From Acidimicrobiia bacterium (lineage in GTDB: Bacteria; Actinomycetota; Acidimicrobiia; Acidimicrobiales; Bin134), in the NCBI GenBank assembly GCA_022822905.1, contig JAJDYE010000040.1, positions 262-64,261 on the forward strand: a stretch of 64,000 nt of DNA. Direction: 5' to 3'. Shown here piece after piece: positions 16,345 to 21,153 of this stretch. The notes below the pieces were generated by a model. It worked only from the letters and a program-made list of their open reading frames with translations, did no database searches and had not been told where the DNA came from. The number at the start of each line of letters is the position of its first letter. The stretch's first letter is position 1. The position numbers were made by a program, and so were the translations under genes.

Positions 16345-17175
16345 TCAATCCGTCTGGGAAGCCTGGGACCGCTCCCGGCTCGGCGGAGGTCGATTGCCCC
16401 TTCGGCCGCCTAATTCCCCCATGCCGCCGAAGAGGCCGGTTATCCCGTACTTGCGCCGAATCTGGGCCCGCACCGACATCGGCCGGCCGAACTCGTCGAG
16501 CACTTCCTCGGCCACCCCGTCGGGATCTTCCTTGTCGCGGTTGTAGGCGATGACTGTGGTTCCTGCCGCCCAGTCCGACACTGTGCGCCGCCGCCGGTCG
16601 AAGGGGACCGTCAGGTAGGTGGCCGCGTTCACGATGATTCCGCCGAGCACCACGGGGGGCGCAATCCACGACACCCCGCCCACCAGCCATCGGGCGCCGC
16701 ACCGGCCCAATCCAAGGTGGCTGCCGTCTTTGGTGCGCACGGCCCGCAGCTTCATCAGATCCATGGCCGGGGTCTGGCCCTCGTTCCAGCGCAGGAACAC
16801 CATCGTGTACACGAAGTGGAAGAAGATGTAGCCCAATATGGCTGCGGTGGCCCGGCCCCAGGGCTCGGGCTGCCACCGGTTGGACACGTCGTCCATGAAC
16901 CACAGGATTTGGATCACGGTGAGCATCCACTGGATGAAGAACACGGTGATGGCGTCGATCAGCCGGGCCAGCGCCCGCCTCCAGACCGCGGCCACCGGAT
17001 ACGGCTTGCCGTCGGGCCCGGCCACGATGGTCGCGCTCTCGGGGAATTCGTCGTCGCCCAGCGGGGTCTTCCGCGGTTTCGAGCGCCTCGATGAGCCGGA
17101 AGCGTGCTGTCGCCGTGCTTTGGTTTCAGCACGCGCCACAGCAGCGTGTTCGAATGAACCTCCCCTGCCCATCAT
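16345..17175 (-). CDS. RDD family membrane protein
   Basis: WRRALARLID, GQT, D..AGT.V motifs; start uncertain. Confidence 0.75.
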   Translation of the reverse strand: MMGRGGSFEHAAVARAETKARRQHASGSSRRSKPRKTPLGDDEFPESATIVAGPDGKPYPVAAVWRRALARLIDAITVFFIQWMLTVIQILWFMDDVSNRWQPEPWGRATAAILGYIFFHFVYTMVFLRWNEGQTPAMDLMKLRAVRTKDGSHLGLGRCGARWLVGGVSWIAPPVVLGGIIVNAATYLTVPFDRRRRTVSDWAAGTTVIAYNRDKEDPDGVAEEVLDEFGRPMSVRAQIRRKYGITGLFGGMGELGGRRGNRPPPSRERSQASQTD

Positions 17176-17185
17176 GGAAGTGGCC

Positions 17186-17536
17186 TCACAGAAGTTCCTC
17201 TACGAGCTCGGAGGGGCGGGCAATCACGGCCTTGTCGCCGCGGACCACCACCGGGCGCTGCATCAGCTTGGGGTGCTCCAGCAGCAGATCGACCACCTCA
17301 CCGGCGCTCTGGTAGTCGCCGATGTTCAGCCCAAGCTCCTTGAAGTTGTTGTCCTGCCGAACCAGATCAGCGGGCTCGTTGGGCAGCAGCTCCAAGAACC
17401 GCTCCAAGTCGTCCCGCCCCAGCGGGTTCTTGAGGTATTGGACGACGTCGAACTCGACGCCCCGCGACTCGAGGATCTCGAGCGCGCCCCGGGAACTGCC
17501 TCAACCGGGGTTGTGGTACACGACGATCTCAGCCAT
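17186..17536 (-). CDS. arsC: Arsenate reductase family protein with in-frame UGA at codon 12 (probable selenocysteine)
   Basis: MAEIVVYHNPG*GSSRGAL...HPKLMQRPVV...IARP; the TGA (17501-17503) aligns to Cys12 of glutaredoxin-type ArsC (HNPACGTSR). Confidence 0.85.
17463..17486 (-). promoter_or_regulatory. SECIS-like stem-loop
   Basis: CGCG-CTCGA[GATCC]TCGAG-T-CGCG; the loop starts with G 23 nt after the UGA. Confidence 0.55.
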
Positions 17537-17624: not shown

Positions 17625-19358
17625 ATGCACGATCTGGTGATCAAGGGCGGTTTGATTGTGGACGGCACCGGTGGTGAGCCATTCACGGGGGATGTGGCCG
17701 TTGACGGGGATCGAATCACAGGGGTGTACCCGGGCGGCAACCCTGATCTGGAGGGCGAAGAGGTTATTGACGCCACTGGGCTGGTGGTGACCCCCGGCTT
17801 TGTGGACTGCCACACCCACTACGACGGCCAGGTGACCTGGGATCCGATCCTGGAGCCGTCGGCCCACCACGGGGTGACCACGGTGATGATGGGCAACTGC
17901 GGGGTGGGGTTCGCCCCGGTGCGGCCCGGCACCGAGGAATGGCTAATCCAGCTCATGGAGGGGGTGGAAGACATCCCCGGTGCCGCGCTGTCGGAGGGCA
18001 TCACCTGGGAATGGGAGACCTTCCCCGAGTATCTCGACGCCCTGGAGCGCAAGCCCCTGTCCCTGGACATCGGCTGCCAGGTGCCCCACGGAGCGGTGCG
18101 GGCCTATGTGATGGGAGAGCGGGGGGCCAAGAACGAGCCGGCCACCCCGGAAGACATCGACCAGATGCGCGAGATCGTGGCCGAGGCGTTGCGAGCGGGG
18201 GCCTTCGGGTTCTCCACGTCGCGCACCATCGCCCACATGGCCATCGACGGCGAGCCGGTTCCTGGTACTTATGCCGCTGAGGACGAGCTGTTCGGCATTG
18301 GCGAGGCGCTCACCGAGGTGGGGCACGGCCTGTACGAGCTGGCCCCCGCCGGAGTGATTGGCGAGGACTTGGCCGCTCCCCACAAAGAAGTCGACTGGAT
18401 GCGCCGCCTGTCGGCCGCCACCGGCCGCCCGGTGACCTTCGCTCTGGTGCAGGTGGACGCCGCCCCCGAGCTGTGGCGGGAGATCATGGACCTGTCGGCC
18501 GATGCGGTGGCCGAGGGCGCCCAGCTCCACCCCCAGATTGCCCCTCGGTGCAACGGCATCCTGATCGGGCTTCAGACCAACCACGCCTTCAGCAGCCGGC
18601 CCAGCTTCGCCGAGATTGCCGAGCTGCCCCTCGAAGAGCTGGTAGCCGAGCTGCGCCGGCCCGAACGCAAGGTAGCCATCCTGTCGGAGGAAAGCTCGTT
18701 CACCAATCAGTTCGCCGAGTACATGGGCACCCAACTCCATCGGATCTATGTGCTGGGTGATCCTCCCGACTACGAGCCCGGCCCCGAGCGGTCGGTGGCC
18801 GCCATCGCCGAGGCTCAGGGGCGGGAGACCGAGGATCTGCTCTATGACTTGCTGTTGGAGGATGACGGTCGGGCGTTGCTGCTGTTCCCGTTCCTCAACT
18901 ACAGCCACGGCAACGCCGACGCGGTGCGGGAGATGTTCCTGCATCCGTCGGGAGTGTCGGGGCTTTCCGACGGCGGGGCCCACTGCGGGGCGATCTGCGA
19001 CGCCTCCATGCCCACCTGGCTGCTCACTTTCTGGGCTCGCGACCGCCAACGGGGCGAGAAGCTCCCCTTGGAGTATGTGGTGCGCAAGCAGTCGCATGAC
19101 ACCGCCCGCCTCTTCGGCCTCACCGACCGGGGCACGCTGGAGCCGGGCATGAAGGCCGACATCAATGTGATCGACCACGAGCACCTGACGCTGCACCCGC
19201 CCAAGCTGGTGGCCGACCTGCCCGCCGGGGGTCGCCGGTTCGATCAGAGGGCCACCGGATATGTCGCTACGCTGGTCAGCGGGGCAGTGACCCGCCGCAA
19301 TGGTGAAGACACCGGGGCCCGCCCCGGCAAGCTGCTCCGAGCCGGAGCCGCCAACTAG
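17625..19358 (+). CDS. N-acyl-D-amino-acid deacylase-like amidohydrolase
   Basis: [29 protein letters not shown]. Confidence 0.9.
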
Positions 19359-19407
19359 CGGCAGACACAACAAACATCGCCAAGTAGCAACCTGGGGAGG
19401 AAGAGCA

Positions 19408-21153
19408 GTGCTGGATCTGGTGATTGCCAACGGCACCATCGTGGACGGCACCGGTGCCGACCGCTTCACTGGCCACATCGGAGTCAAAGACGGCAAGGTG
19501 GCGGTGGTGGACCGCAGCGGCGGTCCCGCTCCCGAGGCCGATGAGACCATCGACGCCACTGGGCTGCTGGTGACCCCCGGCTTCGTGGACTGCCACACCC
19601 ACTACGACGGGCAGGTCACATGGGACGACATGCTCCAGCCGTCTTCCAACCACGGGGTGACCACCGTGGTGATGGGCAACTGCGGGGTGGGGTTCGCCCC
19701 GGTACAGCCCGGCAAAGAGGACTGGCTCATCCAACTGATGGAAGGCGTGGAGGACATTCCTGGAGCGGCCCTCTCCGAGGGCATCTCCTGGGGGTGGGAG
19801 AGCTTTCCGGAGTATCTCGATGTTGTCGAACAGCGCGACCTGGCCATCGACGTGGCCGCTCAGGTGGCCCACGGCGCGGTTCGGGGCTATGTGATGGGGG
19901 ATCGAGGGGCCAAGAACGAGCCGGCCACCCCCACCGACATCGAAGCCATGTACGCCATCGTGCGCGAGGCCATCGAGGCCGGGGCGCTGGGCGTGTCCAC
20001 CTCTCGCACGCTGGGCCACCGGGCCATCGACGGCGAGCCGGTGCCGGGCACCTTTGCTGCTGAGGACGAGCTGTTCGGTTTGGGCCAGGCGCTGGCCGAT
20101 GCCGGTTCCGGGGTGTTCGAGCTGGCCCCGGCGGGTGCGGCGGGGCTGGATCTAGTGGCCCCGCCCAAGGAGATGGACTGGATGCGCCGGCTGTCGGCCC
20201 ACTTCGACGTGCCGGTGTCGTTCGCTCTGCTGCAACTGGAGGCCGCTCCCGATTTGTGGCGAGAGATGATGGACGAGTCGCTTCGGGCGGTTGACGAGGG
20301 TGCCCGGGTGTATCCCCAAATTGCCGGTCGTCCTTTCGGGATGCTCATCGGCTTTCAAACGAACCACGCATTCGCCAAGCGGCCCACGTTTGCGTCGCTG
20401 GCTCATCTGCCCTTCGATCAGCTCGTAGCTGAGCTCAAGAAGCCGGCGATCCGGTCGGCCATCTTGGGCGAGGACGACCTGCCCCCCGACCCCAGCGTGC
20501 TGTTCGACCAGATGCCCAGCATGGTGGCTTCGATGATCCACAAGCTGTATGTGATCGGCGACCCGCCCGACTACGAGCCCACCCACGACCGCACCGTGAC
20601 CGCCATGGCCGAAGCCCGCGGGGTGGATCCGCTGGAGATGCTGTACGACCTCTCCCTGGAGGACGACGGCCGTGCCCTGATGATGCTGCCCATGTTCAAC
20701 TACGTCGAGGAGAACCACGACGTCATCCGGGAGCAGCTGCTGCACCCCGCCGGGGTGTCGGGGCTGTCCGACGGCGGGGCCCACTGCGGCATGATCTGCG
20801 ATGCCTCTATCCCCACCTTCATGCTCACCCACTGGACCAGGGACCGTACCCGGGGCGAGCAGCTCCCTCTGGAGTGGGTGGTGAAGAAGCAGACCCACGA
20901 CACCGCCTCCCTGTATGGGCTGGGCGATCGGGGAACGCTTGAAGTGGGCAAGCGGGCCGACGCCAATGTGATCGACCACCAGGCGCTGACCTTGCGCTCT
21001 CCTCGGGTGGTGTACGATTTGCCCGCCGGGGGACGCCGGCTCGACCAGCAGGCGGATGGCTATGTGGCCACCGTTGTGGCGGGCGAGGTGACCCGCAGCC
21101 AAGGCAAGGACACCGGGGCCCGGCCCGGCCGGCTGGTGCGCGGCACCCAGTAG
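19408..21153 (+). CDS. N-acyl-D-amino-acid deacylase-like amidohydrolase (tandem paralog)
   Basis: Same motifs; GTG start after GGAGG. Confidence 0.9.

Follow-up and report, generated by a model that had tools for sequence, protein, structure and literature searches.

An in-frame UGA at the catalytic position of an ArsC-family gene in Candidatus Poriferisocius (Acidimicrobiia) points to a selenoprotein of the published UxxS type

A gene in the window (the whole 64,000-nucleotide stretch of DNA analysed here, from a draft genome of Acidimicrobiia) carries an in-frame UGA at the codon of its catalytic cysteine, and we conclude with high confidence that it encodes a selenocysteine (Sec)-containing reductase of the ArsC family. 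The case for Sec decoding rests mainly on the pairing of Sec and Cys forms in a single alignment column, on conservation of the gene and on the presence of the Sec machinery, rather than on the hairpin that follows the UGA. Named records assign the genus as Candidatus Poriferisocius, with metagenome-assembled genomes (MAGs) that come largely from sponge-type samples. The substrate is less firmly placed than the protein family, and we weigh it separately below.

On the minus strand, the frame opened by the ATG at 17536 reads MAEIVVYHNPG, a TGA (17503..17501) and then GSSRGALEILESRG, continuing to the terminal stop at 17188..17186; counting the TGA in, there are 116 sense positions in 17536..17186 (Table 1). 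Translation confirmed the start, stop and length proposed in a preliminary description of this DNA. Its statement that gene calling reports only a 73-residue fragment was also reproduced, as the table 11 ORF list holds a single 73-aa ORF at 17186..17407 that starts at an internal TTG. The neighbors of the gene are an RDD protein, two amidohydrolases and oligopeptide ABC ATPases. The RDD-family membrane protein (PF06271; 276 aa; 16345-17175, minus strand) starts 11 nt past the ArsC stop and may be co-transcribed with the ArsC gene; an ORF of equal length and position also follows the ortholog in locus L070. The amidohydrolases, of 577 and 617 aa, are Amidohydro_3 (PF07969) paralogs arranged in tandem (17625-19358 and 19300-21153, both plus strand), divergent from the ArsC gene across an intergenic gap of 88 nt.

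Table 1. Features of the Sec-containing ArsC-family gene, in window positions
Feature	Coordinates	Strand	Details
Sec-containing ArsC-family CDS, complete	17186..17536	(-)	116 residues + terminal TGA 17188..17186
In-frame UGA, codon 12, motif U-G-S-S (UxxS)	17501..17503	(-)	catalytic Cys12 column
SECIS-like hairpin	17464..17487	(-)	nt 17-40 from U of UGA; ~9-10 bp
Terminal stop TGA	17186..17188	(-)	followed by GGC, the same as after the Sec codon

The distribution of the internal TGA was surveyed by a six-frame search of 60 relatives, 36 from the same genus and 24 from other families of the order. The gene was recovered in 34 of the 36 same-genus genomes at 65-95% identity, with exactly one in-frame TGA in each of the 34; the gene was missing from two genomes, whose completeness is 68% and 84%. 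Of the 24 other-family genomes, four carry a TGA form, ten a form with no internal stop and one a partial match, with no homolog in the remaining nine. Forty-eight loci of relatives were aligned, leaving out G052, which lies at a contig edge and shows no internal stop, and G060, the partial match, which has a TAG; their codon-12 column reads TGA in 39 and Cys in nine. Scanning named genomes contributed a further 80 loci, reduced to 79 by removal of L144, which is cut at its 5' end, and here the same column reads TGA in 68, Cys in ten and is unreadable in one. In that last locus (L117, from a Thermoanaerobaculia MAG), the match starts at residue 16 and the upstream frame holds two TGA codons; it was kept out of the counts. 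Some genomes contribute to both locus sets, and the 126 usable loci were therefore collapsed to 80 unique 60-mers (61 Sec, 19 Cys) and to 94 unique proteins (75 Sec, 19 Cys). The Cys forms (n=19) fill the column with TGC in 18 cases and TGT in one, and each of the 107 Sec-form loci has exactly one internal stop and no frameshift. TGA occupies the same column in homologs from other phyla as well. The preliminary description had proposed looking for TGA/Cys pairing among homologs, and the pattern obtained is TGA in every close relative that has the gene and Cys only in distant ones.

Purifying selection acts on the reading frame before and after the UGA. Residues of codons 2-11, upstream of it, are kept while synonymous variation is present, Pro10 being written with three different codons. 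Were translation to stop at codon 12, this upstream peptide would serve no purpose; the retention of its residues therefore indicates purifying selection.

The window genome, a draft in 42 contigs that is 95.65% complete, encodes selA (401 bits), selB (277 bits), selD (357 bits) and a tRNA-Sec (67.5 bits), each above its curated cut-off, so that all four genes named for such a search in the preliminary description are present. The selA and selB genes are adjacent on contig C12, and the tRNA-Sec gene, called by ARAGORN as SeC with anticodon tca, lies about 15 kb away on the same contig. The selD gene (L010; G000:C5:52458-53402, minus strand) encodes a selenoprotein too, with a single in-frame TGA within an N-terminal G-U-A-G-K motif, and the hairpin after that UGA forms about 12 pairs in the fold, with a loop that starts at nt 19. 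Searches for selA covered 31 of the 60 relatives: seven of the 36 in the genus and every one of the 24 other-family genomes. The gene was present in nine of nine genomes with a TGA-form ArsC; the ten relatives without selA have no TGA form, three of them carrying a Cys form and seven no homolog; and selA occurs together with a Cys-form ArsC in seven of the 31. This co-occurrence of selA and the TGA form is supportive of the Sec reading, as a pattern among kindred genomes rather than as statistical proof.

The hairpin that follows the UGA is very probably the SECIS element. Its stem contains one bulged U, and the minimum free energy (MFE) structure has the apical loop AUC (nt 28-30; 17476..17474), closed by the pair G27-C31. 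The preliminary description had the loop beginning with a G 23 nt downstream; the G is there, as G27, but it would begin the loop only if the closing pair G27-C31 were open. Folding of the 86 nt that surround the UGA gives a z-score of -2.71 relative to dinucleotide shuffles, of which one in 200 does as well. When the window hairpin is compared with synonymous recodings of the same peptide, z is -0.85 and 18% of the recodings fold as well; the earlier proposal of a SECIS-like hairpin thus stands as to its presence at a suitable distance, with an individual statistical signal that is weak. Over the whole set, the Sec forms have a mean z of -1.01 against synonymous recodings (58 of 61 negative; nine below -1.64) and the Cys forms a mean of +0.33 (seven of 19 negative), while a hairpin of at least 5 bp was found in 60 of the 61 unique Sec sequences, with a loop start at nt 26-28 in 42 of those 60, and in 13 of the 19 Cys forms at scattered positions; the sequences are kin, and these contrasts in folding overstate their independence.

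Codon usage within the genus points to the same segment. Synonymous entropy, computed over 37 unique coding sequences, is as low as 0.48 for codons 13-24; the values for codons 2-11 and codons 26-116 are 0.70 and 0.86. The Ile codon that places its third base in the loop varies freely (entropy 1.22), and the flanking stem codons hardly vary. The terminal TGA differs from the internal one in what follows, with -9.9 kcal/mol for nt 10-48 after the former versus -17.3 kcal/mol after the Sec UGA. Across 28 Sec-form sequences, 86.9% of the cells in helix 1 are paired, and covariation in the helix is slight, two of nine pairs being changed on both sides. A count over a larger structure, in which a second helix was placed out of register and paired in 35% of cells, gave a covariation score that 40 of 500 shuffles reached, with 69.0% pairing on a -2 slide against 66.2%; the helix 1 values are thus the usable ones. 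Where clades differ in peptide, the bases that make up the stem differ as well, and its register is slightly shifted. RNAalifold, run on 28 Sec sequences of mixed clades, did not return the post-UGA hairpin and gave only a hairpin at nt 43-60; the former was missed in the fixed codon alignment because stem registers differ between clades. The consensus for bacterial SECIS elements expects a G in the loop. The MFE loop of the window, AUC, is without one, the only G being that of the closing pair (G27); a GGUC loop occurs in four unique Sec-form sequences, including L057 and L139. Passages of a 2022 review state that some known selenoprotein genes do not match the SECIS consensus model (PMC9312934).

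The second hairpin, at nt 43-60 (17444-17461, minus strand) and formed by the V-E/D-F-D codons, was considered as a further part of the SECIS and rejected, its palindrome being found also in Cys forms such as L125 and L098. A G-C to A-U exchange occurs there in six of the 28 sequences, and this hairpin is probably a by-product of coding. In the MFE fold, the UGA is enclosed in a CCCCGG...CCGGGG stem (17482-17510, minus strand) made by the N-P-G and S-R-G codons, which is kept within the genus and not in other clades.

Two other accounts of the internal TGA have to be set against Sec decoding. According to one, the gene is a pseudogene with a nonsense mutation, or the TGA is an error of sequencing or assembly, in line with the stop that table 11 places at codon 12 and with the truncated 85-aa product on public record for a same-genus ortholog (P0121). 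Its probability is nonetheless negligible, since a TGA in the same column of 34 out of 34 same-genus orthologs leaves no room for chance or sequencing error, the TGA recurs in other phyla (36-95% identity to the window protein across all these homologs), no frameshift or second stop accompanies it in any of the 107 Sec-form loci, and the residues before it are conserved despite synonymous change. The preliminary description had held that a genome lacking Sec machinery, with TGC or TGT in all close relatives, would mark the codon as a lesion; the opposite was found on both counts. The other account has the codon decoded otherwise, through a reassigned code or near-cognate readthrough with Trp or Cys, or has the functional product start downstream of the UGA. 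Nothing specific speaks for it beyond the weakness of the hairpin signal in the window sequence, and we consider it very improbable: TGA is the terminal codon in 82 of the 107 Sec-form loci, the window gene among them, and is therefore an ordinary stop in these organisms; selA is present in nine of nine TGA-form genomes, as counted above, and none of the ten without selA has a TGA form; and a downstream start would remove the first strand and the catalytic residue, although 11 upstream codons are conserved.

With the codon read as Sec, the assignment of the protein to the ArsC family follows from profile and structure searches, the profile searches being run with Sec written as Cys. The window protein matches PF03960 (ArsC) at 48.8 bits against a gathering threshold of 24, over residues 7-114 and profile positions 1-78 of 79. 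The equivalog model TIGR00014 (arsC) is matched over its full length (1-114 of 114) at 101.8 bits, narrowly under its cut-off of 106.05; Spx-type models lie far below, at 50.1 and 37.2 bits. Among solved structures, the best matches are the R773-type arsenate reductases 1i9d, 1j9b, 1jzw and 2mu0 (E ~5e-19). The alignment to 1i9d and 1jzw is collinear, residues 1-115 on 1-115, and places the TGA on their Cys12, as the preliminary description had claimed; Arg60, Arg94 and Arg107 of the R773-type chains are kept at identical numbers in the window protein. We take the position 12 nucleophile and these three arginines to be the active site of R773-type ArsC. The sequence U12-G-S-S15, together with a pfam03960 domain, corresponds to the definition of the ArsC 1 (UxxS) selenoprotein family.

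Family searches of the 95.65% complete draft yielded no arsenite pump of the ACR3 (TIGR00832) or ArsB (PF02040) kind, and no match to gshB (TIGR01380), glutaredoxin (PF00462) or mycoredoxin (TIGR02200) among possible reductant partners. MshC-like and MshA-like genes are present below their cut-offs (440 vs 485 bits and 386 vs 462.5 bits, respectively). The Sec-ArsC gene is the sole PF03960 gene of the window genome. No ars genes stand beside it in the window or beside its counterparts in five other lineages, and the neighboring genes in those five lineages are unrelated to each other. That the protein reduces arsenate in vivo is, on homology and genomic context, a proposition to which we would give about an even chance; it is kept at this level on account of the lack of a pump, of gshB, glutaredoxin and mycoredoxin matches and of an ars operon, and of the sub-threshold scores of the Msh-like genes. 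The earlier suggestion of a selenium-dependent arsenic or redox enzyme remains reasonable in its general form, while its arsenic part has to contend with a genome in which pump, ars operon, gshB and glutaredoxin were not detected.

These same observations give weight to an alternative in which both the Sec and the ArsC fold are real and arsenate is not the physiological substrate, the role of the protein lying with another oxyanion or disulfide, or in redox sensing of the ArsC/Spx-like sort. The missing ACR3/ArsB pumps and gshB, glutaredoxin and mycoredoxin matches would be understandable on this account, as would the position of the only PF03960 gene outside an ars operon, with neighbors that differ in five other lineages, and a TIGR00014 score just under the cut-off; in addition, the gene occurs in every same-genus genome with a match, in the manner of a housekeeping gene. 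Set against this, R773-type arsenate reductases are the best matches by far, the three arginines sit at identical positions and Spx-type models score about half as high (50 vs 102 bits). The absences, moreover, come from family searches of one draft genome, and arsenite exporters of the MFS type fall outside those searches. We consider a non-arsenate role a serious possibility, though one that falls somewhat short of being probable.

Returning to the preferred reading, the protein is very probably a thioredoxin-fold ArsC reductase of the R773/glutaredoxin-type lineage in which the single catalytic nucleophile, Cys12, has been replaced by selenocysteine. SelB carrying Sec-tRNA(Sec) would bind the mRNA hairpin and Sec would be put in at codon 12, and the terminal UGA, with no such hairpin after it, would terminate. 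The selenolate at position 12, held by Arg60, Arg94 and Arg107, would then attack an oxyanion substrate and be regenerated by a thiol reductant. By homology, arsenate would be the most likely substrate, at the same even level of confidence as above, and mycothiol or thioredoxin are the candidate reductants, given that no glutathione synthetase or glutaredoxin was found. A more far-reaching version, which we offer as speculation and think unlikely, is that Sec-ArsC is not a classical detoxifier at all: it would work free of glutathione, glutaredoxin and pump, be recycled by mycothiol, thioredoxin or another thiol, perhaps act on another substrate, and may also have been transferred across phyla together with its SECIS.

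The relationships of the homologs bear on that last point. Sec forms from MAGs of Pseudomonadales/Gammaproteobacteria, Myxococcota and Opitutales (loci L097-L135) are 59-70% identical to the window protein, and homologs of both forms from the other families of Acidimicrobiales reach no more than 36-53%. In a quick maximum-likelihood tree, whose backbone is weak and in which 47 of 91 inner branches stay open, all 37 unique genus sequences form one well-supported clade consisting of Sec forms alone. Outside this clade, Sec and Cys forms interleave, with eight changes by parsimony, at least two of which are forced by well-supported branches. Transfer of the Sec-ArsC gene between phyla of marine or sponge-associated bacteria is a possible interpretation of this sequence-based picture.

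Public annotation treats the Sec and Cys forms differently. Among the matches listed from a collection of 5.8 billion proteins, Cys occupies the catalytic column in each of nine full-length relatives (65-71% identity), and named sources label such Cys-form relatives "arsenate reductase (glutaredoxin)". The closest relative among the matches listed (P0121, 86% identical), from a same-genus chromosome that also gives L076, is recorded as an 85-aa fragment starting just past the UGA, which demonstrates that gene callers do truncate the gene. The preliminary description had called the selenoprotein hidden; it is hidden from gene callers, but the selenoprotein family is already in print. In the passages available, a survey reports 77 sequences of "Arsenate reductase (ArsC) 1, UxxS" in GOS (PMC2398784), and the 2022 review includes 'Arsenate reductase, COG1393 (ArsC), UxxS', crediting it to an earlier survey (PMC9312934). 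Likewise, the accessible part of a 2006 comparative study mentions "ArsC-like" selenoproteins in two Deltaproteobacteria (PMC1794560), and that of BSepDB (2026) gives an actinobacterial Cys-form arsenate reductase-like protein as an example query for Sec homologs (PMC13326102). In the portions available of the literature among the matches listed, UxxS ArsC is not assigned to Acidimicrobiia or sponge symbionts; the supplementary tables of the surveys may list members. The gene described here belongs to the published ArsC 1 UxxS selenoprotein family and is not a new kind of system.

Its interest lies in several directions. The annotation is corrected, in that an intact selenoprotein of Candidatus Poriferisocius is called as a fragment or missed, and Acidimicrobiia gain a well-supported example of Sec use, accompanied by the complete machinery in one genome. 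Together, the unique sequences (61 Sec, 19 Cys) constitute a clean natural series in which to ask why this active site favors selenium. The apparent absence of the textbook partners (pump, glutathione and glutaredoxin) turns substrate and reductant into a concrete question for the bench.

Bacterial SECIS elements, such as that of E. coli fdhF, are stem-loops in the coding sequence shortly 3' of the UGA. The stem-loop of the window resembles the fdhF type in lying within the CDS at a short distance 3' of the UGA, and departs from the bacterial consensus in its AUC loop and in a stem register that varies between clades. At the protein level, the closest well-known system is the glutaredoxin-coupled ArsC of R773 and E. 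coli, with which the window protein has the motif H-N-P-x-[C/U]-x-x-S-R in common. It differs from R773 ArsC in having Sec in place of Cys12, in its length of 116 rather than ~141 aa, the C-terminal tail being missing, and in its setting, a genome in which no ars operon, ArsB, ACR3, GSH synthetase or glutaredoxin was found. The 'Arsenate reductase 2' or ArsC-like proteins (cd03032, UxxC) and Spx/MgsR, as far as their available descriptions go, have the same superfamily fold and the same N-terminal position of the redox motif; cd03032-type proteins and Spx/MgsR carry UxxC or CxxC, whereas the motif of the window protein is UxxS and lacks a second Cys. The nearest counterpart is the published ArsC 1 UxxS family, which, in the passages available, has the same Pfam domain, U-x-x-S, Sec in the catalytic Cys column and a marine setting, a likeness of description rather than of compared sequences. 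Those reports, in the parts available, consist of metagenomic reads or a single accession; here, the gene is seen in a whole genome with the full Sec machinery and is fixed across a genus.
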